The position numbers and the translations under genes were made by a program. Below are positions 1-54,673 of a stretch of 64,000 nt of DNA, piece after piece. This stretch comes from a virus, in IMG/VR virus record IMGVR_UViG_3300005529_000001, positions 80,882 to 144,881 of that record. One strand, written 5' to 3'. Position 1 is the stretch's first letter; every line of letters starts with the position of its first letter. The notes under the pieces are model-generated. The model searched no databases, was not told where the DNA came from, and saw only the letters and a program-made list of their open reading frames with translations.

Positions 1-322
1 CCGACCAGTAGTAGATCTTCTTGCGCATCCCTGTCACGTTGAAGCGCTTGCCCAGGTACTGGTCGAGGCGTTGGTAGCCCTCGACGACCGTCTCGGCGTT
101 GCCTCGGTTCATGTCCTGTTCGAGGACGCGGATGTCTTCCTGGATGGACTCGACACTCCGGATGAGGCCGGCGACGACGTCCTTCGGACAAGCGACCTCT
201 CGGAGGAGGTCCTTGATGTCACGCCTGGGGTCGCCGAAGCAGTTTCCGGGATTGGCAGCGTCACCGAGCATCTCTTCGAGCTCGTCGGCTTGGTTGATCG
301 TCAGCGTGGTCTTCTTGGCCAT
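1..322 (-). CDS. hypothetical protein, N-terminal part only (gene continues past window start)
   Basis: minus-strand frame open from ATG at 322 (MAKKTTLTINQADELEEMLGDAANPG...) to the window edge; AGGAGG RBS 8 nt upstream; absent from ORF track because incomplete. Confidence 0.45.
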   Translation of the reverse strand, partial: MAKKTTLTINQADELEEMLGDAANPGNCFGDPRRDIKDLLREVACPKDVVAGLIRSVESIQEDIRVLEQDMNRGNAETVVEGYQRLDQYLGKRFNVTGMRKKIYYWS

Positions 323-371
323 GGGGTGGTGCCTCCTGATAGGGCGACTCTACCACAGTCGCCACGATCTT

Positions 372-695
372 TCACAGCGACCAGGGAGGCGCCGCGGGCA
401 GGCCCACGCGCGCACGCTCTGCGTCCAGCCTGGCTTTGTCCTCCCGCGCCGTCACCTCTTCGATGTCGCAGGGCACCGTGGTGAAGGTGTGATCGAACTC
501 CGGCATGGGCGGGAAGTCCTCGTTGGCAAAGCCGAGGCGACAGATCGCCCGCTCGGTGAGGTCCATGAACCGGTCGTCCTTCGTCGTCATGGCGATGGTC
601 ATCTTGCCCTTCTGCCCACGACGGTAGCGCTCGACAACGTCGAGCTGGACCTGGATGATCGCTGCGGCGACGAACTTGGCGATGATGTTGTCCAT
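372..695 (-). CDS. hypothetical protein (107 aa)
   Basis: ORF-track frame with protein-like composition, whereas the overlapping plus-strand ORFs are Arg/Ser-rich wrong-frame artefacts of GC-rich DNA. Confidence 0.45.
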   Translation of the reverse strand: MDNIIAKFVAAAIIQVQLDVVERYRRGQKGKMTIAMTTKDDRFMDLTERAICRLGFANEDFPPMPEFDHTFTTVPCDIEEVTAREDKARLDAERARVGLPAAPPWSL

Positions 696-730
696 GAGCA
701 GAATGTACCTCAGATCGTGACCGAGTTACA

Positions 731-976
731 CTAGATGCGGAACGAACGGACGCTCTTGACGCCGTTGCGGTCGCCGACCTTCGCCAACACCTGGATGGGT
801 TTGGCAGCGACGGCGATGGCCTCGTACTGCCTGTAACCGTAGCCGAAAGCTGAGTGAGCGGCGTCTTCCCCGAACGTCTGCCGGAGGAAGGTGATGAGGG
901 GCGTGTGGAACCTCGGCTCGGTGACGATGACGACAGCCATGAACCGCTTGTCGTGGAGGTCGGGTCGGGCGCTCAT
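731..976 (-). CDS. hypothetical protein (82 aa)
   Basis: C-terminal, protein-like part of ORF 731..1363 starting at ATG 976 (MSARPDLHDKRFMAVVIVTEPRF...); the ATG overlaps the stop of upstream gene 973..1194 as ATGA; the rest of the track ORF is Arg-rich junk. Confidence 0.45.
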   Translation of the reverse strand: MSARPDLHDKRFMAVVIVTEPRFHTPLITFLRQTFGEDAAHSAFGYGYRQYEAIAVAAKPIQVLAKVGDRNGVKSVRSFRI

Positions 977-1194
977 GCGTAGCTGTAGGGCTTGGCGGTG
1001 ACGACGATGGCCCAGCGATCGCCCTTCTCCCAGTTGACGGTGATGCTGGTCCCGTTCGCGAGCTCGACGGTCACGTCGCCGCTCGTGGTGTCCACCTTGG
1101 TGATGGTGCCAATGTCCCCACGTTTGCAATGGGGACAGAGCTGGAACATGATCCGTTTGCCTTCGAGCGACTTGGAGGGGAGCCTGTTTGCCAT
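973..1194 (-). CDS. small Zn-ribbon-like protein (73 aa, CPHCKRGD motif)
   Basis: ORF track; start lies 6 nt downstream of a -10-like TAGACT; protein-like composition. Confidence 0.55.
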   Translation of the reverse strand: MANRLPSKSLEGKRIMFQLCPHCKRGDIGTITKVDTTSGDVTVELANGTSITVNWEKGDRWAIVVTAKPYSYA

Positions 1195-1200
1195 GGTCCC

Positions 1201-1229
1201 AGTCTACCACGCTCGCGCCGGTTCTGTCA
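1201..1229 (-). promoter_or_regulatory. sigma70-like promoter (TGACAG-17bp-TAGACT) 6 nt upstream of ATG 1194, leaderless
   Basis: read on minus strand as TGACAG AACCGGCGCGAGCGTGG TAGACT GGGACC ATG; same architecture recurs at 1485, 1813, 3259, 6708, 45895 and 54674. Confidence 0.5.
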
Positions 1230-1478
1230 CTCCCAGTGGGAAGCGAGCAGCGCGTCAGTGTTGGGGAACAGGCCCTGCAACTCTTCCGGCACCTGCCCCT
1301 CGTCGCCACCACACACCAGCTCCTCGCACTCTTTCTCGGTCGGGTAGCGCTCCGCGATCTCATAGTCGAGCTGGAGCGCCTCGCTGATGTCAGCGGGCAG
1401 GATGTGGACGAGGCTGTCGCTGAACGCCCAGTGCCGGATCGACTCGGTCGCAGCGTTGATGGTCAGGGGTGTGTCCAT
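1227..1478 (-). CDS. hypothetical acidic protein (83 aa)
   Basis: ORF track; leaderless start behind promoter cassette 1485..1513. Confidence 0.5.
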   Translation of the reverse strand: MDTPLTINAATESIRHWAFSDSLVHILPADISEALQLDYEIAERYPTEKECEELVCGGDEGQVPEELQGLFPNTDALLASHWE

Positions 1479-1484
1479 GTTGCT

Positions 1485-1513
1485 ACACTACCACGATCCC
1501 TCGCGAGCTTGCA
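1485..1513 (-). promoter_or_regulatory. sigma70-like promoter (TGCAAG-17bp-TAGTGT), leaderless start at 1478
   Basis: GCGCGGGTGCAAG CTCGCGAGGGATCGTGG TAGTGT AGCAAC ATG on minus strand. Confidence 0.5.
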
Positions 1514-1530
1514 CCCGCGCCTGCGCTCTC

Positions 1531-1806
1531 TCAGAGCTCTTCGTACGTCAGTGAAGCCGGGCACGGCATCCAACCGTCGTCAATGTCGAAGAAGTACCCG
1601 GGCTGATCGGTGGGCTGAGTGTTGCCGTCGCGGACCAGGCGAGTGATGAGGCACGGCACCCAGCCGCCGGGGGTCTTCACCTCGCCCCACGGCTTGTCGG
1701 GGAACTGCATGCTGCCCAGGTCGATCTCGTCATCCATCGCCTGCGCCTCGTCGGGGTACCGCGCGGTGAACTCGCTCTCGGCCAGGCGCTTATACTTGAC
1801 AGGCAT
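1531..1806 (-). CDS. hypothetical protein (91 aa)
   Basis: ORF track; leaderless start behind promoter 1813..1841. Confidence 0.5.
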   Translation of the reverse strand: MPVKYKRLAESEFTARYPDEAQAMDDEIDLGSMQFPDKPWGEVKTPGGWVPCLITRLVRDGNTQPTDQPGYFFDIDDGWMPCPASLTYEEL

Positions 1807-1812
1807 GACCAG

Positions 1813-1841
1813 ACCTTACCACGGAACGCTAGCGAGTTTCA
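1813..1841 (-). promoter_or_regulatory. sigma70-like promoter (TGAAAC-17bp-TAAGGT), leaderless start at 1806
   Basis: TGAAAC TCGCTAGCGTTCCGTGG TAAGGT CTGGTC ATG on minus strand. Confidence 0.45.
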
Positions 1842-2059
1842 CCGGGTGCCAGGCACAGGATCTCCTCGCGGTTGACACGCGCTTTCTCGCCATCGCTGAC
1901 GAAGTAACCCAGGCACGCGCGGCCGATGCAGCTGGGGACGCAGCCGAAGCCGCCGGTGCACATGAAGGTGCGTTCCTCGTCAGTCCCCTTGTAGTAGCGG
2001 GGGTCGAGGATGACTTTCTTGTTGGTGAGGTCGACGCCGGGGACGCTGGTGTTCGCCAT
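1829..2059 (-). CDS. hypothetical Cys-containing protein (76 aa)
   Basis: ORF track; GGAGGAACCAAG-ATG RBS upstream of start at 2059. Confidence 0.5.
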   Translation of the reverse strand: MANTSVPGVDLTNKKVILDPRYYKGTDEERTFMCTGGFGCVPSCIGRACLGYFVSDGEKARVNREEILCLAPGETR

Positions 2060-2082
2060 CTTGGTTCCTCCAACGCGGAAAG

Positions 2083-2115
2083 CCCGGACCCCCGTCTCAA
2101 GGGATCCGGGCCCTC
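2083..2115 (-). terminator. possible hairpin terminator after gene 2130..2954
   Basis: imperfect GC-rich hairpin GCCCGGATCCC-loop-GGGGGTCCGGGC followed by TTTCC on minus strand, just downstream of stop at 2130. Confidence 0.3.
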
Positions 2116-2129
2116 CGGGTGGGAAGCCG

Positions 2130-2954
2130 TCAGCGACCGATGCCGAGGAGCGAGGCGATGCGCCCGTCCTTGAGCGCCTCCAGCTCCTTGGCCAGGATGG
2201 TGTCCATCTTGGCGCGGTCCATGCCGAGGTCGAGGCCGTGGCGCTTGCACAGGCTGTCGAGGAGGCCGCCGAGCTCGTGAGCCGTCGACTCCGTCGGGGT
2301 CATCTCCCGGTACACCGGGTCGACGATGAAGTGACCGTGCTCGACGTCGGGGTTCGAGTCGAGGAAGGCCGCCAGGCGCCGGAAGCAGTCACCGCGGGGG
2401 ACGGGCTTGGGCGCGACGCTGGTGGTGAAGTTGTTGCCGTTGGCATCGGTGTCGACGAAGTACTCGCCGATCTCATTGATGACGACGTAGCCGGTGATCT
2501 CGTTGGTCTTCATGGGGTGGTTGCCTCCAGTGGAACCAGTATAACCCGGTTCGCTCGTGTCTTGCACCCGCGCTTGCGCTTCCTGGTTCAGGACGCCCTT
2601 GAGGCTGCGCCAGACGCCGCTGTCGTCACCGAAGCAGGAGAACACCATCCAGCTGCCCTCGGCGGTCAGCAGGTAGGCGTAGTCAACAGGACCCGCACCG
2701 ATGTCGTCTTCGTAGTCCTGGACGCAGTCGACGATCACGCTGGGATCAGCGCAACCAGCGAGGGGCTTGGGACTGTAGGGCGGCACCAGGCTGACACAGC
2801 GCATGTCCCCGAAGTCAGCGACCCTCGCCGCCTGCTCGGAACTCATGCAGAGGAGCAGCTTGCCGACAGAGCGGGGGAAACCGTCGCTGTGGCAGTACGA
2901 GTAGGTGACCATGCCGTTGGGCGCTTCGACACCGATGTAACAGTGGGTTGACAT
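2130..2954 (-). CDS. hypothetical protein (274 aa); a promoter/RBS/ATG cassette at 2513 in the same frame may give an independent 127-aa C-terminal product
   Basis: ORF track; internal sequence GCGCGGGTGCAAG..17bp..TATACT..GGAGG..ATG(2513, MKTNEITGY...) fits the recurring promoter cassette but is in frame with no stop. Confidence 0.45.
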   Translation of the reverse strand: MSTHCYIGVEAPNGMVTYSYCHSDGFPRSVGKLLLCMSSEQAARVADFGDMRCVSLVPPYSPKPLAGCADPSVIVDCVQDYEDDIGAGPVDYAYLLTAEGSWMVFSCFGDDSGVWRSLKGVLNQEAQARVQDTSEPGYTGSTGGNHPMKTNEITGYVVINEIGEYFVDTDANGNNFTTSVAPKPVPRGDCFRRLAAFLDSNPDVEHGHFIVDPVYREMTPTESTAHELGGLLDSLCKRHGLDLGMDRAKMDTILAKELEALKDGRIASLLGIGR

Positions 2955-2963
2955 GGTCCTAGT

Positions 2964-3251
2964 CTACCACGAACGTGGCAGTCCTTTCACTCTGGCGCGG
3001 CTGATCCTCGGGTGGTGCCAGGGCCTGTTGTGGTGGGGGACATCGTTCCGGTGCCAGAGCCCATCGGAGCCCTTGAAACAATACGTCTCCAGCAGGCCGA
3101 GGTAGCCCAGGTTGGTGCCCCAGTAGGCCCTGCACCGCATCGGCTCGCCCGGGTGGCTCATCTCCCACAGGGCACGCTGGATGTCGGTGTACCGCATCCC
3201 GCCACGGTCAGCGATCAGGTCGAGGACCCTGACGGACTTTGACTGCAGCAT
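2964..3251 (-). CDS. hypothetical protein (95 aa)
   Basis: ORF track; leaderless start behind promoter 3259..3297. Confidence 0.5.
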   Translation of the reverse strand: MLQSKSVRVLDLIADRGGMRYTDIQRALWEMSHPGEPMRCRAYWGTNLGYLGLLETYCFKGSDGLWHRNDVPHHNRPWHHPRISRARVKGLPRSW

Positions 3252-3258
3252 GGTCCCA

Positions 3259-3297
3259 ACCTACCACAAAAAGGATCGCGGGTGCACACCCGCGCCC
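3259..3297 (-). promoter_or_regulatory. sigma70-like promoter (GTGCAC-17bp-GTAGGT) for gene starting at 3251
   Basis: GCGCGGGTGTGCAC CCGCGATCCTTTTTGTG GTAGGT TGGGACC ATG on minus strand. Confidence 0.45.
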
Positions 3298-3314
3298 GCG
3301 CCCACGCAATGGCT

Positions 3315-3354
3315 CATCGATGAACCCACAGTGCAACCAAGAGTTCATCGATGG
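3315..3354. promoter_or_regulatory. perfect 11-bp inverted repeat CATCGATGAAC-N18-GTTCATCGATG in divergent intergenic region (candidate operator)
   Basis: seen directly; lies between the divergently transcribed gene 2964..3251 and the RecA-like gene; the loop contains GTGCAACC, the -35-like motif of this element. Confidence 0.4.
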
Positions 3355-3481
3355 TACACTGGACCCAATCCGCTTGAAGCTGGCCTGGAGAGCGAGCCCT
3401 GGTCCGGGAGGACGGCGGGGAGCCACGCAGCCTGCCCAACGGTTGGGCTCCCCAGAAAGCGCTGCCCGTCCACACCGTCTG

Positions 3482-3510
3482 TGCAACCCCCGGTGCTTTC
3501 CTGGTAGACT
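3482..3510 (+). promoter_or_regulatory. sigma70-like promoter (TGCAAC-17bp-TAGACT) for RecA-like gene
   Basis: TGCAAC + 17 bp ending in CTGG + TAGACT; here followed by a 37-nt leader with GGAGG RBS before ATG 3548. Confidence 0.45.
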
Positions 3511-3547
3511 GGGACCATCAACGCTCCACCACCCCGGAGGAAACACA

Positions 3548-4369
3548 ATGGCTGGCATGAACCTGAAGGTGGCCCGAGGCTTCGCCCTCGGCACCCGCCG
3601 ATCGACCATCAAGGTCCCACCCGAGCTCCGCGTCAAGCACTCGACCGGCATGGACTGGCTCGACGACGTGCTGGGCAGCGAGGGCGGTGTCACCGCCTCG
3701 TCTGTCATCATGCTGACGGGCGGTCCCGGCTGCGGCAAGAGCACCCTGATCCGGCAGCTGGCCAACTCGATGGCCCGCGACGGCTCGACGCTGCTCCCCA
3801 TCTACAACTGCGGCGAGGAGAGCCTGTTCCAGGCTGAGCTCGCCAACGAGCGGCTGCAGGTCACCAACGACTTCATGGTCGGTGAGGAGACGGAGCTGCC
3901 CAAGCTGCTGACCTTCGCCGACAACGTGAGGAAGGCCAACCCGAAGAAGGTCGTCACCATCCTGCAAGACAGCCTCCAGACCCTGAACGACATGAAGTAC
4001 AAGGACGGCGGCACCACGGGCAACACCCCGGTCCGCTGCGCCGAGGCGCTGGTCAGCTGGTCGCAGGAGAAGGTGGGCAACTTCGGCCACGTCTGGTTCG
4101 TCGGCCAGGTGACGAAGGGCGGCGAGTTCGCCGGCAAGAACGTCATCAAGCACGCGATTGACGTCCACATGCACCTGTTCTACGACGAGGACAAGAAGTC
4201 GGCGACCTACGGCATGCTGCTGGGCGAGGTCCAGAAGAACCGCTGGGGTTGCAACGGCAAGACCTACATCCTCGGCCTGACCAAGACGGGCATCGAGGAG
4301 CGCGGCTCCTTCACCAAGGGCCAGGACTTCGACGTCGACGGCAAGGAAGACGAGGGGGAGGCTGCCTGA
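3548..4369 (+). CDS. RecA/RadA-like ATPase (small Sak4/RadA-type recombinase core, Walker A GGPGCGKST)
   Basis: ATG 3548 preceded by GGAGG; motifs VIMLTGGPGCGKSTLIRQL and the RecA-fold core arrangement; ORF-track start 3239 lies in the promoter region and is rejected. Confidence 0.65.
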   Translation: MAGMNLKVARGFALGTRRSTIKVPPELRVKHSTGMDWLDDVLGSEGGVTASSVIMLTGGPGCGKSTLIRQLANSMARDGSTLLPIYNCGEESLFQAELANERLQVTNDFMVGEETELPKLLTFADNVRKANPKKVVTILQDSLQTLNDMKYKDGGTTGNTPVRCAEALVSWSQEKVGNFGHVWFVGQVTKGGEFAGKNVIKHAIDVHMHLFYDEDKKSATYGMLLGEVQKNRWGCNGKTYILGLTKTGIEERGSFTKGQDFDVDGKEDEGEAA

Positions 4370-4629
4370 TGATCAGCATCGTGCAAGTCCAAGCAGCGAC
4401 TCCTCCCTACGAAGAGGTCCACGTGCGGATGTCCCGCGCCGAGGCCGTCGCCCTGTTCCACGACCTCAACCGGGTCATGGCGATCCTCGACGACGCTCGC
4501 GCGAACGAGGACGACGGCATGGTCGGGGACATGGACGGCGCTGACCAAGCCGCCTACGATCACGCCAACGACTTCCTGGCTCTCATCCAGCGCGAGCTGC
4601 AGATCGACCCGGAAGATCCCAGGGACTGA
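4369..4629 (+). CDS. hypothetical acidic protein (86 aa)
   Basis: ATG overlaps the stop of the RecA-like gene (TGATG coupling); helical, protein-like composition. Confidence 0.5.
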   Translation: MISIVQVQAATPPYEEVHVRMSRAEAVALFHDLNRVMAILDDARANEDDGMVGDMDGADQAAYDHANDFLALIQRELQIDPEDPRD

Positions 4630-4643
4630 GCACAGACCACTGG

Positions 4644-4716
4644 GCGCATGCGTGGGGGGGCTGGACGAGCCAGGGGTGGTGATGACAGCCCCCCCACGCA
4701 TGCGCCGCTTTTTTCG
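4644..4716 (+). terminator. rho-independent terminator (17-bp GC stem, 28-nt loop, T6 tail)
   Basis: GCGCATGCGTGGGGGGG ... CCCCCCCACGCATGCGC followed by CGCTTTTTTCG, immediately after stop of gene 4369..4629. Confidence 0.6.
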
Positions 4717-4727
4717 TCACCCGGCTG

Positions 4728-4756
4728 TGAAAGTCGCTGGTGACTTGTGGTAATTT
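4728..4756 (+). promoter_or_regulatory. sigma70-like promoter (TGAAAG-17bp-TAATTT)
   Basis: TGAAAG TCGCTGGTGACTTGTGG TAATTT, 8 nt before ATG 4765. Confidence 0.45.
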
Positions 4757-4764
4757 GGTGGCCC

Positions 4765-5010
4765 ATGGGGGGGACCGCAGCTGCTGGTCGACATGTCCGG
4801 CCAGACGGCAACGCCTTCCGGCTGATCGCGCGCGTACGTGAGCAGATCAGGGGAGAGGCAGCCAGGGCGCAGTTCGTCAGGCAGGCGCTGTACGGGTGCA
4901 AGACCTATGACGCGGTGCTGCGGCTGTGCCTCGAGCACGTGGAGGTGGTCGACCCGTCGGGCTACCTGGCGCAGCACCTGGAGCGGGCGGCGCGGGGCGA
5001 CGAGCCCTGA
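4765..5010 (+). CDS. hypothetical protein (81 aa)
   Basis: in-frame ATG at 4765 within track ORF 4747..5010 (whose track start is a GTG inside the -10 element); helical, protein-like sequence. Confidence 0.4.
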   Translation: MGGTAAAGRHVRPDGNAFRLIARVREQIRGEAARAQFVRQALYGCKTYDAVLRLCLEHVEVVDPSGYLAQHLERAARGDEP

Positions 5011-5037
5011 ACCGCTGGGCGACCGCCATCGCGCGCC

Positions 5038-5265
5038 GGCGTTCTGTGCCGACAGGGCCCGCGCAGATCGTACGCCACCCGGGCCGCAGTGTTCACCCGG
5101 TGCGTTCTGTGCAGATCGCTGACCTGCATGTGACGCGGGAGGACCGGAGAGGCAGCCAGGGAGGGTGGCGGACCTGCAGCAGCCGGGCGGGCGAGCGGGG
5201 AGGCAGCGTCACCCGACCCGTGCCAGCGCGTGCGTGTTCTGTGGGGATCTATCGCGATCTGCGGG
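5038..5265. repeat. non-coding region with three GTTCTGTG(C/G) iteron-like direct repeats and GCAGATCGC / GCGATCTGC inverted copies
   Basis: GTTCTGTG at 5041, 5104 and 5236; GCAGATCG at 5063 and 5111, inverted GCGATCTGC at 5255; the 5011-5419 stretch has no credible ORF (only Arg-rich wrong-frame ORFs). Confidence 0.45.
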
Positions 5266-5419
5266 TCGCGGACCGGCGGGCGGCGCATGCTCCACCCCTC
5301 GTCCGTTCGCCTTCCCGCGCTCACGTGCCCCTTTTGCTCCCCTGGGCCCTGCGTCCGCGTGCACCCAGGATAGCCTATCCGATCTGTGGCTTGTGGGCCG
5401 CTGCGGGGCTTTTTACCCC

Positions 5420-5671
5420 CTAGGGAACCCGGGCGACGGGCACGCGTGCGCGCGAGACCAGCTCCAGCTCGTCACCCGTGTACCAAACGTACGAAGTCGT
5501 TGGGGTATTGCTGAAGTTCACCGCATAGACACGCTCGTGTGGAGCAACTCCCTCGATGCGTTTGATGCAACCGATTGTCCCGTCCCCGCCTCGCAGGGTG
5601 ACATAATCATCTACTTGGAAGACCGTGTGCAGCACTGCGGTAGGTGCAGAGTCTAGTTTTTCTTTCGTCAT
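5420..5671 (-). CDS. hypothetical protein (83 aa), distant relative of the small-protein family (VDDYVTL...GDGTIG)
   Basis: ORF track; first gene of the minus-strand array. Confidence 0.45.
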   Translation of the reverse strand: MTKEKLDSAPTAVLHTVFQVDDYVTLRGGDGTIGCIKRIEGVAPHERVYAVNFSNTPTTSYVWYTGDELELVSRARVPVARVP

Positions 5672-5865
5672 CTGGGGATTGTAAGCTGTCTCCCGTCACT
5701 GGGTCGCGCGCACGCGTCCGCGCAAGGATCGTAGCCCTCGATCACGCACGTCCATAGCTTGGGTTCCGGAGTCAGGTAAACCAGCACCGTCTTCTTCTCA
5801 TCCTCGGCATACACCGCGATGACCAGGTCCTCGCCCACCATGTCCCCGGGTTTCACCATCGTCAT
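5668..5865 (-). CDS. small protein (65 aa) with VKPGDMV motif; paralog of remnant at 6770-6924
   Basis: ORF track; ATGA coupling with neighbour. Confidence 0.45.
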   Translation of the reverse strand: MTMVKPGDMVGEDLVIAVYAEDEKKTVLVYLTPEPKLWTCVIEGYDPCADACARPSDGRQLTIPR

Positions 5866-6131
5866 CTCAAGAGACGGCCCTCGCCCTCGTCAGCTTGTTC
5901 GACCAGGAACGGGCTGCACCAGCCCAGCTCCATCCGGTGGTTCAGCACCAAGATGCCCCGTTCCCTGCAGACAGCGATAACCAGGGCGACCTCGTCGGCG
6001 GTCAGGTCACCGCAGGCTGGGTTGTCATCGCTCTCGCCCGCACCGTGCCTGCGCCCGCGCCACAGGGTCGGCCTCCAGTACCCGGTCACCAGGTCGCCTG
6101 GGGAGATGGGTTGCGGTCTCCCGTCAGACAC
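5862..6131 (-). CDS. family A small protein (SPGDLV...VALVIAV...ELGW)
   Basis: ORF track plus family motifs shared with more than 30 neighbours. Confidence 0.6.
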   Translation of the reverse strand: MSDGRPQPISPGDLVTGYWRPTLWRGRRHGAGESDDNPACGDLTADEVALVIAVCRERGILVLNHRMELGWCSPFLVEQADEGEGRLLR

Positions 6132-6351
6132 TGTCCACGAACTCGGTGAAGGCCCAGCCCAGCTCTGATCGCGAGTTGAGCAACAACGCCACGCCGATCG
6201 CCTGTTCGTTTGGCTCTGGGGGCACGACCGCGATGACCAGCATCACCTCTCCCGGTGAGAAGCTGCCGCACTGGTTCCTGACAGCGGGCGTCCGGTACAG
6301 GTGGCGCTTCACCATCCTCGCGTTGGTGGTGACCAGGTCCCCGGGCTTCAA
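6124..6351 (-). CDS. family A small protein (MKPGDLV...VMLVIAV...ELGW)
   Basis: ORF track plus family motifs. Confidence 0.6.
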   Translation of the reverse strand: MKPGDLVTTNARMVKRHLYRTPAVRNQCGSFSPGEVMLVIAVVPPEPNEQAIGVALLLNSRSELGWAFTEFVDSV

Positions 6352-6701
6352 TAGTGACGCCTGTACCAGCCCGGCGGGGGACAGAACGGGATGAACCGGT
6401 GCAGCAACGTCGACACCGCTGCCTCGACCTCCTGGTTCTTGGCCAGCTCCCGTTTCATGTCCTGCGTCGCCCGGGTGCAGTCACAGAGCAGCTGTTCGTC
6501 GTTGAGGTCGACCCGGGTGTACTGGTGCTTGTTGTGGTCCCACGCCGAAGCTTGCGACGTCTCGACCCTCAGCAGCGCTGCCAGCTGTTCCAGCTGCTTC
6601 CTCAGCTTGGTCTTCTCCGGCGGGGGCTCGCCCGACTTCATGATGTCCTTGGCGAACGACATGCTGGTGAACGGGTCCCTGGTCGGGGTCTTGTCCTTCA
6701 T
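6348..6701 (-). CDS. hypothetical coiled-coil protein (117 aa), not a family member
   Basis: trimmed to ATG 6701 (MKDKTPTRD...), which sits 6 nt after the TATACT -10 of promoter 6708..6736. Confidence 0.5.
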   Translation of the reverse strand: MKDKTPTRDPFTSMSFAKDIMKSGEPPPEKTKLRKQLEQLAALLRVETSQASAWDHNKHQYTRVDLNDEQLLCDCTRATQDMKRELAKNQEVEAAVSTLLHRFIPFCPPPGWYRRHY

Positions 6702-6707
6702 GGCTCC

Positions 6708-6736
6708 AGTATACGGTCTCCCGCCCCGGGCTTGCA
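6708..6736 (-). promoter_or_regulatory. sigma70-like promoter (TGCAAG-17bp-TATACT), leaderless start at 6701
   Basis: GCGCGGGTGCAAG CCCGGGGCGGGAGACCG TATACT GGAGCC ATG on minus strand. Confidence 0.5.
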
Positions 6737-6769
6737 CCCGCGCGCACGCGCAGCGAGTCGCTCCGGGAT

Positions 6770-6924
6770 CTCAACGAATCGACGGATCCCTCGAGGCCGT
6801 CATCGCAGACCACGTCGTAGGTCCGCAGCCTGGGCCCAGGGGTGAGGCACGTCACCGTCGTCACTTCGCCCCTGGTCACCACGGCCACGACCAAGTCAGC
6901 GCCCATCATCTCTCCCGGTTTCAC
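6770..6924 (-). pseudogene. possible degenerate paralog of gene 5668..5865 (VKPGEMMGADLVVAVV...LTPGPRL...), GTG start overlapping upstream stop
   Basis: GTG at 6924 in a GTGA overlap; first ~45 aa align with 5668..5865, but the frame then runs unbroken through the promoter and start of gene 6348..6701 to a stop at 6481. Confidence 0.25.
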
Positions 6925-7178
6925 GTGCCCGTCTCCCTGAGGTACCAGGCATAGCTCCAGCCGAGCTCGGACCGGGGCGACAGCAACAGGGCTCTCGTGT
7001 CGTCGTTTGGGTCTGTCTCGGGCACCGTCGCGATGACCAGGGCGACCTCTCCCTCCATCAGCCTCCCGCACCTGTGGAACTGAGCAGTGTCCATCGACCG
7101 GTACAACGGGATTGTCAGGATGGGCTCGTTGTTGTGGCCCCCGTCGGGCCTGATCGTCACCAGGTCACCCGGCTTCAT
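6921..7178 (-). CDS. family A small protein (MKPGDLVTIRPDG...VALVIATV...ELGW)
   Basis: trimmed to internal ATG 7178 at the conserved MKPGDLV N-terminus. Confidence 0.6.
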   Translation of the reverse strand: MKPGDLVTIRPDGGHNNEPILTIPLYRSMDTAQFHRCGRLMEGEVALVIATVPETDPNDDTRALLLSPRSELGWSYAWYLRETGT

Positions 7179-7410
7179 CGAAGAGCCCCTCCCTCTGCCA
7201 ACCGAAGGTCGTCCCCACCAGGACCAGCAGCTGCTGCCCAAGCTCGTGGGGGATGTCCGCGGTGGCCAGCACGATCCCGAGGCTGCTGCTGTTGAGCCAT
7301 AGCACCGACCGGCCCGCGCTCGAGCCGATCCGGTTGTCCCACAGGGGTGCGGTGCCTCCGTCCACGTCGGCGCGCCACTTGGCCAGTCTGACCAGGGTCC
7401 CGGGCTTCAT
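7165..7410 (-). CDS. family A small protein (MKPGTLV...FGW)
   Basis: ORF track plus motifs. Confidence 0.55.
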   Translation of the reverse strand: MKPGTLVRLAKWRADVDGGTAPLWDNRIGSSAGRSVLWLNSSSLGIVLATADIPHELGQQLLVLVGTTFGWQREGLFDEAG

Positions 7411-7646
7411 GGGTTGCTGTCACCCGTCGAGACGGTGATCGTCTTTGTGAATGATTCGTAGATCCAGCCGAGCTCCGCCTTCGAGTTCAGGACTAACAAC
7501 ATGTTTGCTCCAACGCCGTCAACGGCAATGACAAGGGCAATGCCATCAGGTGTCAGCTCGCCGCAGTGTTGCCAGGGTGCATGGTTGGTCCTGAAGATGA
7601 GTCGCTTTTGCAGGTCGAACGTAGTGATCAGGTCTCCGGGTCTCAT
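7407..7646 (-). CDS. family A small protein (MRPGDLI...IALVIAV...ELGW)
   Basis: ORF track plus motifs; ATGA coupling. Confidence 0.6.
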   Translation of the reverse strand: MRPGDLITTFDLQKRLIFRTNHAPWQHCGELTPDGIALVIAVDGVGANMLLVLNSKAELGWIYESFTKTITVSTGDSNP

Positions 7647-7876
7647 GTGTCAAACCCGTCGATGAAGGAGATGTAGATCCATCCCAGTTGAGCCCTGTTC
7701 CCAATCACTAGAGCCTTGATCTTGTCCGATGCCACGACCAACGCAACCTCCTTGGGACCCAGCTCACCGCACCTGTTGTCACCGCCCCGGAATGCGTCGA
7801 GATCGAGTTGCTTGTACAACCCACGGGTCACGTTGAAGGAGACAGTGACCAGGTCTCCGGGCATGATCGGTCTCAC
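7643..7876 (-). CDS. family A small protein (MPGDLVTV...VALVVAS...QLGW)
   Basis: ORF track plus motifs; ATGA coupling. Confidence 0.6.
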   Translation of the reverse strand: MRPIMPGDLVTVSFNVTRGLYKQLDLDAFRGGDNRCGELGPKEVALVVASDKIKALVIGNRAQLGWIYISFIDGFDT

Positions 7877-8154
7877 TTGCGGTCTCCCGCTCGGTTCTTG
7901 AGCGTCCTGTTCAGCAGCCAGTCATCCTCGCCGACAGTGACGACGAACCCAGCATAGCACCAGCCCAGCTCACCACGTTCCGTCAGGACCAGCACTGTCA
8001 CGTTCGGCCTGAAAGACGCGATGACCATGCCCAGCTCGCCCGGTTCCAGTGACCCGCATGATGCTGAGAAGCCGGTGTCCCGGTACAGGAACCTGGGCCC
8101 TCTTGGATGGTCACTCGTCACCAGGTCGCCCGGCCGGGAGAACCTCCATTCCAC
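7873..8154 (-). CDS. family A small protein (RPGDLV...GMVIAS...ELGW), probable GTG start
   Basis: family domain within ORF 7873..8289; the N-terminal 45 aa of the track ORF are junk-like and overlap gene 8181..8477; in-frame GTG at 8154. Confidence 0.5.
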   Translation of the reverse strand: MEWRFSRPGDLVTSDHPRGPRFLYRDTGFSASCGSLEPGELGMVIASFRPNVTVLVLTERGELGWCYAGFVVTVGEDDWLLNRTLKNRAGDRK

Positions 8155-14110: not shown

Positions 14111-14478
14111 TTCTTCCCCTTGTTACCCGAGCCCTTTTCCCACCCGGGTTCGTTCTCGTCCCACTCAACAGTGACAGTGCCCGTGTAACGACGGCCCTTT
14201 TTCTCGAGACCAAAGTCAGCGGTGACACAATCGCTGGTGTCTGTGAAGTCATCGAGCGGTTCTGTTGATGAATCACGTCGGGTCAGCGGGTCATCTCCGT
14301 TTGATTGGTCCCACAAGGCATTCATCTGCAAGCTGTCAGCCAACGATTCCACCGCTTGTTCGAGGGTGTCACCCTGGCTGACGATGTTGAACGTGGTCGT
14401 CCCCGCGACCCACGCAATCTCGGACCAAAACGCAACGTACTCAAGCGTCTTTGATCGCATCACCCGCTTGTGCGCCAT
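14107..14478 (-). CDS. HicB-like / UPF0150-like domain protein (123 aa), no HicA partner seen
   Basis: segment YVAFWSEIAWVAGTTTFNIVSQGDTLEQAVESLADSLQ matches the HicB-family core YxVxFPD..GxxAxGDTxEEAxxxAxEAL. Confidence 0.45.
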   Translation of the reverse strand: MAHKRVMRSKTLEYVAFWSEIAWVAGTTTFNIVSQGDTLEQAVESLADSLQMNALWDQSNGDDPLTRRDSSTEPLDDFTDTSDCVTADFGLEKKGRRYTGTVTVEWDENEPGWEKGSGNKGKK

Positions 14479-14752
14479 GCGGTGATTTTACGTGGTCCCG
14501 ACCGTCTTGGATCTTTTTAAACCAATGAGCAGTGTTCCACCCAATCCTACCAGACACTAGCAACATCACGTGGTCGGTGTCAGTGCCGGGAATCCCCATC
14601 AAACTTGGGTAACGAGCTAGGACCAAGACGATGTCGTTGGTGTGAATGGCACCACGGTTTTCTGTTCCCTCTTCGGGGTCTTTCCAGAGCGTGAGCGGGA
14701 CCTTGTTTCTATTCTTATCGATGTTTATCCTGACTAGGTCTCCCGGTCTCAT
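14441..14752 (-). CDS. family A small protein (MRPGDLVRI...IVLVLAR...RIGW)
   Basis: trimmed to ATG 14752 (ATGA with upstream stop). Confidence 0.55.
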   Translation of the reverse strand: MRPGDLVRINIDKNRNKVPLTLWKDPEEGTENRGAIHTNDIVLVLARYPSLMGIPGTDTDHVMLLVSGRIGWNTAHWFKKIQDGRDHVKSPHGAQAGDAIKDA

Positions 14753-19052: not shown

Positions 19053-19333
19053 TAACGTCCCTTGTCTAGCTTCTCGTAGGCCGCCCAACCTGCCTTAAAA
19101 CCAACCACGATGCCCTGCACTTCTCGCATCTTTGCATCGTAGGACATTCTCGGCCCGGGCTGGAGCTCGCTGACGCAATCAGTGACGGCGTAGATCTTGA
19201 CAGTGTCACCGACCATCTTCAGCTCGATCGAGACAAACGAGCCCTGCTTAGATCGGAGAGTATCGTAGAGTGCAAATGCGATGTCCCTGTCGCTGGAAAC
19301 AGCCTCGACTAGCAGGATTTCCTTGTCACTCAT
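19052..19333 (-). CDS. hypothetical protein (93 aa)
   Basis: ORF track. Confidence 0.45.
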   Translation of the reverse strand: MSDKEILLVEAVSSDRDIAFALYDTLRSKQGSFVSIELKMVGDTVKIYAVTDCVSELQPGPRMSYDAKMREVQGIVVGFKAGWAAYEKLDKGR

Positions 19334-19334
19334 G

Positions 19335-19363
19335 TGTCCACCTTATCACCGGGACGGTACGGT
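19335..19363 (+). promoter_or_regulatory. sigma70-like promoter (TGTCCA-17bp-TACGGT), leaderless start at 19370
   Basis: TGTCCA CCTTATCACCGGGACGG TACGGT TTGCAC ATG. Confidence 0.4.
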
Positions 19364-19369
19364 TTGCAC

Positions 19370-19654
19370 ATGACATTGTTGCCAGGCGACCTGGTGATTC
19401 GTAGCGTGTCACCCAGGCTTGACACTCCGCCACGAGTTCACCTGGAGCCCGTGCCCGACAACATGACACGTAAACATGTCATCGAGTTCAAACGCGATGA
19501 ACCCGCGCTGGTCATCGCGGTGAGCTGGGTCCAGCTAGCTGAACAATTCGGTGGTGAATATTCGTTGTTACTCTACAAGCACCGCATCGGCTGGTGCTTG
19601 AGTGGGGAGTGTGAGCTGCTCAGCGATGACCCTGCAACTCGTCGAGACGATTGA
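19370..19654 (+). CDS. family A small protein on plus strand (MTLLPGDLVIRS...PALVIAV...RIGW)
   Basis: in-frame ATG 19370 inside track ORF 19334..19654; family motifs. Confidence 0.55.
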   Translation: MTLLPGDLVIRSVSPRLDTPPRVHLEPVPDNMTRKHVIEFKRDEPALVIAVSWVQLAEQFGGEYSLLLYKHRIGWCLSGECELLSDDPATRRDD

Positions 19655-45465: not shown

Positions 45466-45888
45466 TCAGGTGCCCTCACGGCTGGTGTCGATGTTCTTTG
45501 ACATCCACTCGTTCTCACGCTGCCAGGCATCCTTTGCGTTCTGGATGTCTTCTTCGTCTGCCATTCCGACGAAGTCCTCAGCCTTCCACACGTCGAAGCG
45601 ACGTTGGCTTGAGTGACCACCAAAACCGACGCTGATTGTCACATAGGGTTCCTGGTCCTTGTTATGAACGACGGTGAATTCCTTGATCTCACCAGCATGG
45701 GGCTTGCCTCGTCCTGAACCGCGAAACCGTTCAGCGGGAGCAACCATGACCCAATCGCCCACCTTCAGCCCGTCATGCTCTGAGAGCTTCTCGTAGTGAG
45801 GCAGGCCCCGAGCGAAAGCTGCTTGCTTTGGATCTGTCGGAGCTGCTTCGCGAAGAGCGAGCCGGATCTTGCCTAATGTCGTTTTCAT
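45466..45888 (-). CDS. hypothetical protein (140 aa)
   Basis: ORF track; leaderless start behind promoter 45895..45923. Confidence 0.5.
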   Translation of the reverse strand: MKTTLGKIRLALREAAPTDPKQAAFARGLPHYEKLSEHDGLKVGDWVMVAPAERFRGSGRGKPHAGEIKEFTVVHNKDQEPYVTISVGFGGHSSQRRFDVWKAEDFVGMADEEDIQNAKDAWQRENEWMSKNIDTSREGT

Positions 45889-45894
45889 GTGTCC

Positions 45895-45923
45895 ATCCTA
45901 CCACGAATCAATGTTTTTGTGAA
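45895..45923 (-). promoter_or_regulatory. sigma70-like promoter (TTCACA-17bp-TAGGAT), leaderless start at 45888
   Basis: TTCACA AAAACATTGATTCGTGG TAGGAT GGACAC ATG on minus strand. Confidence 0.45.
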
Positions 45924-46117
45924 CTGGTAAGCAACGGCAACCAGACTGACTTGATGTCACGTGCAACCATCACGCCCGTGATGACAGCGATAGCACCTGA
46001 GGCTACGGGAACCAGCAGTGGTAGCTTGGTGAAGAAAAAGGTGAACAGACACGTTGCTGTCATGCTCACAAACACGATCCAACTGAACGTAGGACCAATG
46101 AGTTTTGTGGCGATCAT
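45908..46117 (-). CDS. small membrane protein (69 aa)
   Basis: ATG 46117 with GGAGG RBS; two hydrophobic helices. Confidence 0.4.
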   Translation of the reverse strand: MIATKLIGPTFSWIVFVSMTATCLFTFFFTKLPLLVPVASGAIAVITGVMVARDIKSVWLPLLTSSQKH

Positions 46118-46513: not shown

Positions 46514-46783
46514 TCAGCGACGCCAGGTGACTCGACCCTTGGTCAAATCGTAGGGAGAGACTTCGATGGTGACATTGTCACCGGGTAACAGACGGATGCG
46601 ATTGATCCGCAGCTTGCCCGACAACGTGCACACGACCGTGTTGCCCGCCTCACACTTCACCCTGAAGAGCGTTCCCGGTAGGGCTTCCTCAACCCGTCCT
46701 TGAAGTTCCAGTCGGTCCTGCCGTTCCTCCGGCTCGGTCTGAAACTCTTGCTCCTGCCTGCCCCTTCTCTTGTTCTTGCTCAT
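46514..46783 (-). CDS. infA: translation initiation factor IF-1 homolog (S1-like OB fold) with a 25-aa basic N-terminal extension
   Basis: LELQGRVEEALPGTLFRVKCEAGNTVVCTLSGKLRINRIRLLPGDNVTIEVSPYDLTKGRVTWRR aligns along its whole length with bacterial IF-1; GAGGA RBS 5 nt before ATG 46783. Confidence 0.65.
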   Translation of the reverse strand: MSKNKRRGRQEQEFQTEPEERQDRLELQGRVEEALPGTLFRVKCEAGNTVVCTLSGKLRINRIRLLPGDNVTIEVSPYDLTKGRVTWRR

Positions 46784-46983
46784 TGTCCTCGTCTTCGTTG
46801 TCAGCCGGACCACCAAGGCCCGGTGGTGGGCTCATCAAGCTGTTGCTACGTTCAAGGCTGGAGCCACCGCTCCCGCCCCCGTCCATGAAAAAACCAGCGC
46901 TGTACCTGAGGTCATCATCAACGCCAAACTCCAACAGCTGGCGGATCTTTGCTCGTAGCTCGTGCAACCTGATTCTCATCCAT

Positions 46984-47382: not shown

Positions 47383-47434
47383 TTCAGAACAAGGTACAAC
47401 GTCTGGGGATAAGGTACATGCCTAGGTACCTACA

Positions 47435-48542
47435 GATGCTCCCGTATGACTATCTGATCGTAGGTGCAGGTCTGTTCGGATCGACTTTCGCGTGGCACGC
47501 TAGACAACGTGGCAAGCGTGTCTTGGTCATAGACAAACGAAACCACGTGGGCGGGAACTGCTACACCCACCAGGTTGAAGGGATCCACGTCCATGCTTAT
47601 GGCCCGCACATCTTCCACACGAGCGATCAACAGGTCTGGTCATTCGTCAACAGGTTCGCTAGCTTTCACAAGTACGTGCACCGGGTCAAGGCTCGGCACG
47701 GTGACAAGCTGCTATCTTTGCCCGTCAACCTGATGACGTTCAACAAGCTATGGGACGTAAAGACGCCAGAAGAAGCCGAGGCAAGGCTCCAACAAGCCAG
47801 GACAGTTTGCCCGCATCCCAAGAACATGGAAGAGTGGGCCCTGTCGCAGGTCGGACCCGAGATCTACGAATTGCTCTTCAAACACTACACCACCAAACAA
47901 TGGGGCCGAGACCCAAACCAGATGCCCGCCGCTGTGTTGAAGCGTCTGCCGATCAGGCTCACCTGGGATGACAACTACTATGATGACAAGTGGCAAGGGA
48001 TCCCAACTGGCGGCTACACCCGGATATTTGACGGGCTGTTAGAGGGCTGCGATGTCCGTCTGGGAATCGACTATCTGGCACACCGTGAAGAGCTTGACAA
48101 GCTAGCACGGGTTGTGGTGTACACAGGCCAAGTAGATGCGTATTACGATTACGCGTTGGGCAGGTTAGAATACCGCACGCTTGACTTTGAAACAAAGGTA
48201 ATCCCCCACAGCAACTACCAAGGTTGCGCACAGCTGAACTGGACGGGCCCAGAAGTTCCCTGGACTCGGACAATCGAACACAAGCATTTCGAACTCACCG
48301 ATGTGCCTGCTACCGTTGTCACGTGGGAGACACCTGCAGCGTACAAACCGGGTGATGAGCCCTACTACCCGATCAACGATACTAGGAACAACGATCTCTA
48401 CATGAGGTATAAAGACCTAGCCGATCACGAACCCGGGGTCTTGTTTGGCGGACGGCTGGGAACCTATCGCTATTTTGACATGCACCAGGTGATTGCACAA
48501 GCAATGCACCTGGCGAAACAAGAAGGGTTGATTGATGTCTGA
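47435..48542 (+). CDS. glf: UDP-galactopyranose mutase
   Basis: near-colinear match to Glf: YDYLIVGAGLFGSTFAW, KRNHVGGNCYT, IHVHAYGPHIFHT, RTIEHKHFE, GDEPYYPIND and FGGRLGTYRYFDMHQVI; start set at ATG 47435 rather than track GTG 47364. Confidence 0.8.
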
Positions 48543-49236: not shown

Positions 49237-50005
49237 GAAGTTGTCGCCAGTGTTCAGGCATGAGCTGAACCTCGCCCACCGCATATGGATCCCCGAATTG
49301 GTTTGACTGTTTATCGATATTAGCGAACACATCAATAACAGACTGACGATCAGCGATGTTTAACCGGGCTGAATGACGACGGAAATACTCGTCAACATCG
49401 AGACACCAACCGTGAAGTAACGACAGTGTTGGGTCAATTGGCTCATTGACTTGTTTGATACCATTCAAGTAAAAGTTATGGAAGCCCCTCTGGTACGTCA
49501 TTGGCACTTTTGTCACCAGTGTCTTGTCATACATGGGTAGCCTCCACATCGACCGTCTGTCAACAAGGAGTTGAGCGCCTGGCGTCCGTGACAGCATCGC
49601 TTCACCCGGTTGTTGTACCACATTCCACCCAACTGCACGTCTCCACTGGTCTTTTGACTTCAGGAAACGCTCACAATAGTCTCGCAAGTTAACGTACTTG
49701 GCATTGGGGATCAGGAACTCGTCGGTCTCGGCAAAGACAACGACGGGGTAGCGTTGGAGCAACTCACGTTGCATTTGCTCAACAACCTGTTTCAAAAACA
49801 GACTGACGTGAGTTCCACGTGACGGCACACACACAAAATTGACCCGAGGGTGAAGCAATCGTGCTTCTTCCACGCTCCCATCATCAGTTGAGTTATCGAT
49901 CACATAGACGTCTTCAGGCGGAAAATTGCTGGTGTAGTAATTCAGCCACGTCCGGAGAAACAACGGCTCGTTTCGTGTGATGGTAAAAGCAGCGAAGTCT
50001 CCCAT
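49226..50005 (-). CDS. glycosyltransferase family 2-like protein
   Basis: AAFTITRNEPLFLRTWL...VYVIDNSTDDGS matches the GT2 N-terminal signature (IIPTYNE...IIVVDDGSTD). Confidence 0.55.
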   Translation of the reverse strand: MGDFAAFTITRNEPLFLRTWLNYYTSNFPPEDVYVIDNSTDDGSVEEARLLHPRVNFVCVPSRGTHVSLFLKQVVEQMQRELLQRYPVVVFAETDEFLIPNAKYVNLRDYCERFLKSKDQWRRAVGWNVVQQPGEAMLSRTPGAQLLVDRRSMWRLPMYDKTLVTKVPMTYQRGFHNFYLNGIKQVNEPIDPTLSLLHGWCLDVDEYFRRHSARLNIADRQSVIDVFANIDKQSNQFGDPYAVGEVQLMPEHWRQLLTY

Positions 50006-50042
50006 GTGTAGATTCTACTCTTCCATGATTTAAAGTGTTGCT

Positions 50043-54667: not shown

Positions 54668-54673
54668 GCCCAG

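Follow-up and report, generated by a model that had tools for sequence, protein, structure and literature searches.

We analyzed a window of 64,000 nucleotides (positions 80,882 to 144,881 of the IMG/VR virus record IMGVR_UViG_3300005529_000001), in which the same promoter-like cassette recurs in front of genes on both strands. The products encoded in the window include a major-vault-protein-like protein, an SPFH protein, GroEL, an AAA ATPase, a UDP-galactopyranose mutase (GLF), a methionine aminopeptidase, an ADP-ribosylglycohydrolase, TANGO2 and Fpg/Nei; no tRNAs and no Rfam families were found within it. The exact ATPase and GLF proteins recur on metagenome contigs, the largest of which (ena:ERZ27279688:k141_1055159) measures 369,506 bp; by our calculation the window corresponds to about 13.4-77.4 kb of it, in reverse orientation. 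A further copy of the ATPase gene is present in a Centralia coal-fire soil metagenome (PMC11237453), and the relatives of the window in IMG/VR are contigs of up to 340 kb. Because it belongs to this 369.5-kb soil contig, the window can be assigned to an uncultured jumbo phage from soil, with a genome of about 370 kb. Megablast of 8 kb of the window against GenBank phages gave no match, and the ATPase, which has a RadA-like domain, reached about 30% identity in a tblastn search of the same phages.

The cassette has the consensus CR-GTGHAAS-N14-TGG-TAGANT-N5-C-ATG, in which a -35-like box is separated by a rigid 18-bp spacer from a -10-like hexamer preceded by an extended -10 (TGn). All the promoter sites named in the original prediction were verified in the sequence. 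The distance of 6 nt between the -10 and the ATG that it gave is exact at the eight minus-strand leaderless sites it listed, while at 4728 the cassette is present as described and the ATG lies 8 nt past the -10 instead of 6. For the site at 3482, said to have a 37-nt leader, the ATG is indeed 37 nt past the -10, and the predicted leader is about 31 nt long with a GGAGG. The -35-like element, first described as TGMAAG or GTGCAA at 17 bp, is better described by GTGHAA at 18 bp, or equivalently by TGHAAS at 17 bp. The cassettes of the first 7 kb are given below; scores in bits come from a position weight matrix (PWM) trained on related contigs alone, with which the window was then scanned at a threshold of at least 14 bits, matches below 12 bits being indistinguishable from background. 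Some cassettes head a leader with a Shine-Dalgarno sequence (SD).

693-731, minus strand: cassette p695, GTGTAA, 18-bp spacer, AGG-TACATT, N6, ATG at 695 of a 107-aa gene; 15.6 bits.
1192-1230, minus strand: cassette p1194, GTGACA, TGG-TAGACT (hexamer at 1201-1206), gggacc, ATG at 1194 of a 73-aa gene; 24.3 bits.
1476-1527, minus strand: cassette p1478, GCGCAGGCGCGG extension, GTGCAAG, TGG-TAGTGT (hexamer at 1485-1490), ATG at 1478, 83 aa; 25.7 bits.
1804-1842, minus strand: cassette p1806, GTGAAAC, TGG-TAAGGT (hexamer at 1813-1818), ATG at 1806, 91 aa, start also called independently; 19.6 bits.
2511-2580, minus strand: leadered cassette p2531, GCGCAAGCGCGG extension, GTGCAAG, GGT-TATACT; 22.1 bits.
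2952-2990, minus strand: cassette p2954, GTGAAAG, TGG-TAGACT, aggacc, ATG at 2954; 31.7 bits, the top match of the window.
3249-3300, minus strand: cassette p3251, GTGCAC within the palindrome GCGGGTGTGCACCCGC, TGG-TAGGTT (hexamer at 3258-3263), ATG at 3251, 95 aa; 19.1 bits.
3331-3367, plus strand: orphan cassette, GTGCAAC, TGG-TACACT, predicted start at 3367; 26.9 bits.
3481-3550, plus strand: leadered cassette of the RadA-like ATPase operon, GTGCAAC, TGG-TAGACT; 30.7 bits.
4727-4767, plus strand: cassette p4765, GTGAAAG, TGG-TAATTT, leader of 0-2 nt; 21.4 bits.
6699-6750, minus strand: cassette p6701, GCGCGTGCGCGCGG extension, GTGCAAG, CCG-TATACT (hexamer at 6708-6713), ATG at 6701, 117 aa; 10.6 bits.

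The spacing between hexamer and start codon was compared with dinucleotide-preserving shuffles. The window contains 31 occurrences of TANNNT-N6-ATG where 7.8-8.1 (sd about 3) are expected, and a scan of spacings from 0 to 15 revealed an excess only at 6, with 10 occurrences at spacing 5 and 9 at spacing 7. The relatives showed the same N6 peak (88 versus about 21). TGGTANNNT-N6-ATG was found six times in the window against 0.13 expected, and GCGCGGGTGCAAG is present in three identical copies, at 1508, 2561 and 6731, each on the minus strand. Among the start codons at N6, ATG alone is enriched (31 versus 8.0; GTG 8 versus 12.8; TTG 10 versus 9.0). ATG also starts 18/18 predicted genes with a -10 at N6, versus 56/102 other genes. 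The self-trained gene map was used for this ATG/GTG contrast only, since start calls outside the cassette genes are unreliable and make counts of SD presence or absence noisy.

Logos were then built from two sets of anchors. In the first, only GTG[ACT]AA and ATG were fixed and the -10 was left free. The gap between the two anchors peaked at 30 nt (53 sites versus ~4 at other gaps), and these 53 sites revealed a -10 (T 50/53, A 50/53, T 47/53) preceded by TGG (T 32/53, G 44/53, G 40/53). They also carried a C at -1 in 51/53 cases, the A at +1 being given by construction through the ATG anchor. The second logo was anchored on NGGTANNNT-N6-ATG only, and its 125 unique family sites returned the box at a fixed distance (G116 T115 G118 N A114 A105). 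Conservation exceeds 90% at five positions of the box. Across 213 unique TANNNT-N6-ATG sites, the distance from box to hexamer was 18 bp in 120, 17 bp in three and 19 bp in one, and a TTG-type -35 was seen in 4/213. The GTGHAA box, placed at this fixed 18 bp, agrees with TTGACA at 3-5 of 6 positions, and the most frequent hexamer is TAGGAT.

The PWM scan, a check set beforehand, returned 13 matches of at least 14 bits in the window versus 0.38 in shuffles. Ten of them lie at or no more than 2 nt from the ATG of a gene, two head SD-bearing leaders and one has no open reading frame (ORF). None of the 13 is antisense within a gene; one match (predicted start 2531) lies inside a long ORF, where it is sense-oriented and placed at the junction of two gene units. 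The motif is thus not equally frequent inside genes or on the wrong strand, and the recurrence of the cassette is confirmed as real and far beyond chance. Of the 13 matches, 11 fall in 1-7 kb, where the strong form is concentrated; groEL and other sites outside this region have weaker variants, with CTGAAC and without TGG.

Every related lineage bears the same cassette, with 16 copies in 12 kb in the closest relative, L003. In five lineages, the region ahead of the ATPase ortholog has retained the box, the TGn/-10 and an SD leader of ~30 nt while the spacers diverge, and the groEL promoter (CTGAAC ... GGTRTAGRAT ... ATG) is kept in three lineages (window, L008 and L009). A degenerate form of the pattern was found in IMG/VR in 25 stretches on 12 contigs, most of 50-216 kb and several with more than one match. 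In contrast, only 13 stretches were found in 596 Gb of bacterial genomes, which is about chance level. The cassette is specific to this phage clade, of which many members with 65-86% identity were found.

Several cassettes of the same type are present in L012, L014 and L022 (CAZPXK010000001.1, 57 kb, from a Bdellovibrionales metagenome-assembled genome), the sole genome contig with multiple matches. This contig carries phage-like genes (ATP-dependent DNA ligase, DUF2201/VWA, AlkB-like oxygenase and L7/L12-like domain), and none of its proteins is similar to those of the window. We take it as a probable distant member of the clade, mis-binned in a bacterial genome, and therefore rejected it as evidence on the host.

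We consider it rather probable that the cassettes are sigma70-type leaderless promoters, read by the host primary sigma at least at the onset of infection. They would consist of the -35-like GTGHAAS, the extended -10 TGn and the -10 TAGANT, most often TAGGAT. Because the -10 ends exactly 6 nt upstream of the ATG, RNA polymerase would start at the A of this codon and produce mRNAs without a 5' leader. Translation would then proceed by 5'-end-dependent and AUG-dependent initiation without an SD. As initiation of this kind is confined to the 5' end of the transcript, each such gene would need its own promoter, which would explain the layout of one cassette per small gene. Genes without a cassette are located behind a cassette gene and have a ribosome site of the GGAGG type. 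The motif with its statistics, its placement and orientation with respect to genes and its conservation in the clade are shown directly, whereas initiation at +1, leaderless translation and reading by the host holoenzyme are all inferred from the sequence.

The leaderless geometry is supported in silico by several features. The spacing is exactly N6, C stands at -1 in 51/53 sites and only ATG is enriched. Transcription start sites usually favor such a C at -1 and A at +1. Independent gene callers chose the same ATGs in public assemblies, protein alignments of orthologs start at residue 1, and the promoters are kept upstream of orthologs despite their diverging spacers. The geometry leaves no space for an SD, and GGAGG is present in front of operon-internal and leadered genes. 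The enrichment of ATG alone fits the requirement for a 5'-terminal AUG in leaderless initiation (PMC3890552).

A TANNNT beside an ATG could also be a translational or RNA-processing signal, or a compositional artefact, with expression coming from long polycistronic transcripts. Read-through is indeed likely, as most cassettes have no terminators between them. However, the second conserved box at a fixed 18 bp, with the adjoining TGn, has the geometry of a sigma70 holoenzyme footprint, and the shuffles rule out composition as the cause. The same cassette also heads SD-bearing leaders of 18-31 nt and therefore acts independently of the start codon. We regard this non-promoter explanation as extremely improbable.

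The two leadered cassettes of the first 7 kb illustrate this point. The cassette of the ATPase operon has a predicted start at 3517, followed by a 31-nt leader with GGAGG and the ATG at 3548. Cassette p2531 has a predicted start at about 2531 and a leader of ~18 nt with GGAGG, and its ATG at 2513 is in frame within the ORF 2130-2954 (minus strand). This ORF consists of two gene units joined in frame without an intervening stop, with a complete cassette and SD inside, which suggests that it yields nested products of 274 aa and 147 aa. Its C-terminal unit, SD-led in the window, is a stand-alone leaderless gene of 130 aa in L003, and orthologs thus appear able to switch between the leaderless and the SD-led mode. 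At p1194, L003 likewise has a leaderless ortholog, with a protein alignment that runs from residue 1. In the window, the TGA stop of the gene upstream of p1194 sits within the -35 box; a stop codon inside the box was considered as a general rule and rejected, as p1194 alone has a TGA in GTGACA.

A -10 next to the ORF is a known design. TANNNT placed 6-7 bp before the ORF was shown by experiment to be the promoter -10 of leaderless genes in Deinococcus (PMC12340547), the design was mapped genome-wide in Streptomyces and Corynebacterium (PMC4895711, PMC3890552), and leaderless genes were inferred across bacteria (PMC3160421). The leaderless genes of Actinobacteria and Deinococcota share with the cassette genes the TANNNT 6-7 bp before the start, the lack of an SD and a strong preference for AUG, and a -35 at ~17 bp raises their output (PMC3160421, PMC4895711, PMC3890552, PMC12340547). 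The cassette differs from them by a far more conserved box (>90% at five positions), by its fixed spacer and strongly conserved TGn, and by the box itself, GTGHAAS in place of TTGNCN/NTGACC. GTG starts, unused in cassette genes, account for about 21% in C. glutamicum, and GUG is used in S. coelicolor too. The carrier is here a phage, whereas the known leaderless sets are those of cells.

The closest phage precedent is the Thermus phage phiYS40, whose genome is 152 kb long; its middle and late promoters are not known to have a -35, whereas the cassette has a strong -35-like box. According to the summary of Sevostyanova et al. 2007 in PMC3594737, it is likewise a large phage with mostly leaderless middle and late mRNAs and -10 promoters of host type, and it shifts the levels of initiation factors (IF2 up, IF3 down) in favor of leaderless mRNAs. 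While phiYS40 alters the levels of host factors (PMC3594737), the present family encodes its own initiation factor 1 (IF-1) and its own sigma.

The inference of an actinobacterial host made in the original prediction received no independent support. No DNA or protein relative was found by megablast and tblastn among GenBank phages, actinophages included: tblastn with the major-vault-protein-like protein, GroEL and the ATPase retrieved only uncultured huge phages and bacterial-type genes. GroEL reached at most 48% identity in GenBank phages, the top rows being bacterial contaminants in “phage” records. None of the 13 cassette stretches found in 596 Gb of bacterial genomes is actinobacterial, and the best named cellular matches of GLF are Bacillales, Pasteurellaceae and Planctomycetes. 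Searches with IF-1 and the phage sigma returned proteins of the phage clade only, and this sigma is equally close to the RpoD, SigA and HrdB proteins of all phyla. With its G at position 3, the hexamer TAGGAT is reminiscent of the classical Streptomyces consensus, which is weak evidence. Leaderless genes abound in Actinobacteria and Deinococcus-Thermus, and occur too in Acidobacteria, Chloroflexi and certain Proteobacteria (PMC3160421). Placing the -10 next to the ORF is no less characteristic of Deinococcota (PMC12340547, PMC3160421) and of phiYS40 (PMC3594737).

The question of which enzyme reads the box involves a sigma factor encoded by the phage. A search with an RpoD sequence as the probe detected a sigma70-family gene in four cassette-bearing relatives (L027, L046, L025 and L040; E ~1e-42). 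A member of this family, P0129, lies on the same 369.5-kb contig as the window, outside the window itself (L050 6001-6807). The factor is 262-314 aa long in these contigs, and its homologs form at least 120 clusters, on contigs of up to 369 kb. Only Sigma70_r2 and r3 were recognized by Pfam, with no region 4, and 39/40 aligned sigmas end in ...LRLRFGLVEDxTDSxxYPITEEExxxVMxGKGLT, P0207 having an unrelated C-terminal extension. As this end lies at the turn of the helix-turn-helix (HTH) of region 4.2, the -35 recognition helix is missing; the AlphaFold model has one short helix past region 4.1, with low confidence there. Region 2.3/2.4 is near-identical to that of primary sigmas, and PDB matches were equally good for RpoD, SigA and HrdB of all phyla. 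In region 3.0, H455 is kept and E458 is replaced by T. Near-identity in region 2.3/2.4 implies that the phage sigma could read the TGn/-10, but the missing recognition helix makes it unlikely to read the box. A weak match of region 4.2 in tblastn to a 79-aa protein (37728-37967; L001) had raised the idea of a split sigma and was rejected as noise, with no HTH or Pfam match.

In four lineages, a cassette-type promoter with the box and without TGn precedes the sigma gene by 700-1350 nt. This argues that the box is readable by a factor already at hand when no phage sigma has yet been made, and suggests the host enzyme in that role. On the preferred reading, the host primary-sigma holoenzyme would recognize the cassette at least at the onset of infection, and the phage sigma, lacking the -35 recognition helix, may later use its TGn/-10 part.

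Several observations weigh against these being leaderless promoters of the host enzyme. The exact cassette is nearly absent from the 596 Gb of bacterial genomes and is found in IMG/VR on about a dozen mostly large viral contigs. The box is GTGHAAS, with TTG in 4/213 sites, and its spacer is rigid (18 bp, n=120; 17 bp, n=3; 19 bp, n=1); such a combination of a rigid spacer and a non-TTG box fits a dedicated class of phage promoters better than a population of promoters for the host sigma-A. A sigma70-family factor is also encoded by the phage itself. In addition, most cassettes have no terminators separating them, and read-through transcripts with internal, non-5' ATGs must therefore exist too. 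The original assignment to a single sigma-A-type class thus stands for the canonical -10 and TGn and is weakened by the box, which is almost never TTG, by the rigid spacer and by the phage's own sigma.

The cassette could instead be the cognate promoter of the phage sigma, acting alone or with a box-reading phage partner, as a middle or early-delayed class with unchanged leaderless geometry. The presence of the sigma gene on the contig of the window and on four other cassette-bearing contigs fits this idea, as do the rigid spacer, the non-TTG box and the conservation of five box positions above 90%. At least 120 clusters make up the sigma family, and the cassette is found only within the clade. 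A region 2.3/2.4 near-identical to that of primary sigmas should read TANNNT, H455 is kept, and loss of the recognition helix predicts a dependence on TGn, which is strongly conserved in the cassette. However, a factor without a Pfam region 4, ending at the turn of the 4.2 HTH in 39/40 cases, would be a poor reader of a -35-like box; no candidate partner protein was found, and E458 of region 3.0 is a T. With the sigma operon itself behind a box-bearing promoter, bootstrapping is also a problem if the host enzyme does not read the box as well. We consider this alternative possible but doubtful. A second, sigma-specific promoter class was sought by k-mer enrichment in intergenic regions, which was unconvincing on a crude gene map with many false “intergenic” gaps.

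An IF-1 homolog is encoded in the window at 46514-46816 on the minus strand (PF01176, E 4.8e-23); it has a basic N-terminal extension, is conserved across the clade and could have a bearing on leaderless translation. Together with the cassette and the truncated phage sigma (regions 2-3 and 4.1), this IF-1 could form a self-contained expression module that retools both RNA polymerase and the initiating ribosome, with the over-specified GTGHAAS/TGn/-10 promoter as the mark that the phage sets on its own genes. Leaderless phage messages would then be expressed while -35-dependent and SD-dependent host expression is shut down, and GTGHAAS would be read by a new mechanism, for which the conserved YPITEEE..GKGLT tail of the sigma or a partner protein would be candidates. 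We regard such a module as unlikely.

The dense block at 1-7 kb consists of small accessory genes with a fast turnover, beside the conserved RadA-like ATPase operon. In the first 8 kb, 4 of ~21 genes have homologs in L003 (ATPase 81% identical), while 8-64 kb is syntenic with another contig of the L003 metagenome. With so few genes shared, the cassettes head single, rapidly exchanged small genes, which are probably early genes. The G+C content is 63-65% in 1-8000 and ~55% in 8001-64000, so that the high-GC block coincides with the cassette-dense, fast-turnover region; the regions homologous to 1-8000 in L003 and L007 also have 64-66% G+C. Most cassettes directly adjoin the preceding gene without a terminator. 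Few terminator-like hairpins are present in 1-8 kb and none is regularly paired with cassettes; a perfect 21-bp hairpin with a T-run behind it (4643-4715) closes the ATPase operon.

This turnover raises the question of whether the cassettes are chiefly short homology blocks for the recombination of single-gene cassettes, the promoter role being secondary. A precedent exists in the PeSL elements of the hyperplastic regions of T4-type phages, in which a repeated early-promoter motif brackets single variable ORFs (PMC2839356, PMC4122927). In the window, cassettes likewise flank nearly all small genes of the fast-turnover region, where 4 of ~21 genes are shared with L003 against synteny elsewhere, and at one junction two gene units are fused in frame. 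Lineage-specific extensions also suggest spread by copying: four minus-strand cassettes have the GC-rich extension GCGCRNGCGCGG directly upstream of the box (1515-1527, 2568-2580, 6738-6750 and 3288-3300), and L004 has a different one, gtataattc..ggaca. These shared extensions could be a regulator site or a trace of cassette copying. Nevertheless, conservation is limited to the functional promoter positions, with a freely varying 14-nt spacer; this is the signature of selection for recognition by a protein and not of homology tracts. A PeSL combines an early promoter with a stem-loop terminator, and this second half is missing from the cassette. The exact distance to the ATG is irrelevant to recombination. 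A chiefly recombinational function is therefore very improbable, although the two roles are not mutually exclusive.

Other phages offer partial parallels for strong promoters repeated before small genes. The T4 early “uber” promoters (UP/-35/TGn/-10; PMC2988021) are also many very strong, over-specified sigma70 copies in front of small non-essential early genes. At T4 middle promoters (MotA box and -10), a phage factor replaces reading of the -35 and the -10 is kept; no MotA or AsiA homolog was seen here, though no search was aimed at either. The cassette differs from T4 in that T4 transcripts have leaders and SDs, and T4 early promoters have A/T-rich UP elements. phiKZ (PMC8244752) and AR9 (PMC5312081) similarly combine a large genome with conserved early motifs ahead of many small genes, but they rely on multisubunit RNA polymerases of their own and on AT-rich promoters with a single block. 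The 5' untranslated regions (UTRs) measure 26-491 nt in AR9 (PMC5312081) and mostly 31-40 nt in phiKZ, where no leaderless transcript was found (PMC8244752).

Thus, it is already known both that a -10 beside the ORF gives leaderless mRNA and that phages can place many identical strong promoters ahead of their small early genes (PMC2988021). New are the jumbo-phage clade as carrier and the over-specified, rigid cassette with its GTGHAAS box, as well as its co-occurrence with a phage IF-1 and a phage sigma without a -35 reader, a combination not described before. Since most genes of the clade are small ORFans, it is useful that the motif alone provides start codons and promoters at single-base resolution for a clade of uncultured soil phages of 300-370 kb. 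The cassette is also predicted to be a compact strong promoter of ~39 bp, estimated at roughly 25 bits, that needs no 5' UTR. The finding ties together a rigid non-TTG -35-like box, a sigma without a -35 recognition helix and a phage IF-1; if these three features cooperate, this would be a natural system in which a virus privatizes the initiation of both transcription and translation. It would then be the first jumbo-phage lineage run largely on leaderless mRNAs, as phiKZ has none and the UTRs of AR9 are at least 26 nt long. If the host enzyme reads the cassette, these would be ordinary, though unusually clean, strong early promoters, and the host would translate leaderless mRNAs well.

Further sites, with weaker boxes or only a -10 in most cases, were found in the window as follows.

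5669-5683, minus strand: -10-only leaderless site, TACAAT-N6-ATG at 5671, 83-aa gene, called independently.
14476-14490, minus strand: weaker -10-only leaderless site, TAAAAT-N6-ATG.
19331-19372, both strands: compact divergent leaderless pair, ATG at 19333 (minus; hexamer TAAGGT at 19340-19345) and ATG at 19370 (plus), 37 bp apart; minus-strand member 14.7 bits.
45886-45924, minus strand: cassette p45888, GTTCAC, TGG-TAGGAT (hexamer at 45895-45900), ATG at 45888, 140 aa; 15.1 bits.
50003-50045, both strands: second divergent leaderless pair, ATG at 50005 (minus) with TAGAAT and ATG at 50043 (plus) with TAAAGT.
54665-54703, minus strand: weak variant, the groEL promoter, CTGAAC, GTA-TAGAAT (hexamer at 54674-54679), ctgggc, ATG at 54667.
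Similar -10-only sites: ATG at 18256 (minus), 19877 (minus), 28275 (plus), 35322 (plus), 42798 (minus), 43903 (minus) and 46477 (minus).

In the divergent pairs, the two ATGs are 37-38 bp apart. At 19333/19370, each start codon adjoins the -35 box of the opposite promoter (CAT-GTGCAA), and this arrangement is kept in the relative L001 at 1582/1619.

The orphan cassette at 3331-3367 has no ORF at its +1, where relatives bear a small leaderless gene. The 115-nt RNA that would follow it (3367-3481) folds like its shuffles (z = +0.98), giving no sign of a structured small RNA there; the region 3331-3481 (plus strand) may hold a decayed gene or an unstructured RNA. Within the same block, a non-coding stretch of ~400 bp at 5011-5420 contains three GCGTTCTGTG repeats, a duplicated GGAGAGGCAGCCAGGG and several GC-rich inverted repeats.

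The remainder of the window carries a cell-like gene cluster (36875-37741, 47418-48542, 53018-54667, 57215-57988, 58546-59481 and 63047-63859) composed of methionine aminopeptidase, UDP-galactopyranose mutase with two glycosyltransferases, GroEL, TANGO2, ADP-ribosylglycohydrolase and an Fpg/Nei glycosylase. At 29403-34554 on the plus strand, a 1050-aa protein with the shoulder and repeat domains of the major vault protein is followed by a 638-aa SPFH/Band-7 protein. This locus shows 42% identity to proteins of uncultured huge phages of 462-735 kb (LR756500-3), and its gene is SD-led in the window and leaderless in L001.

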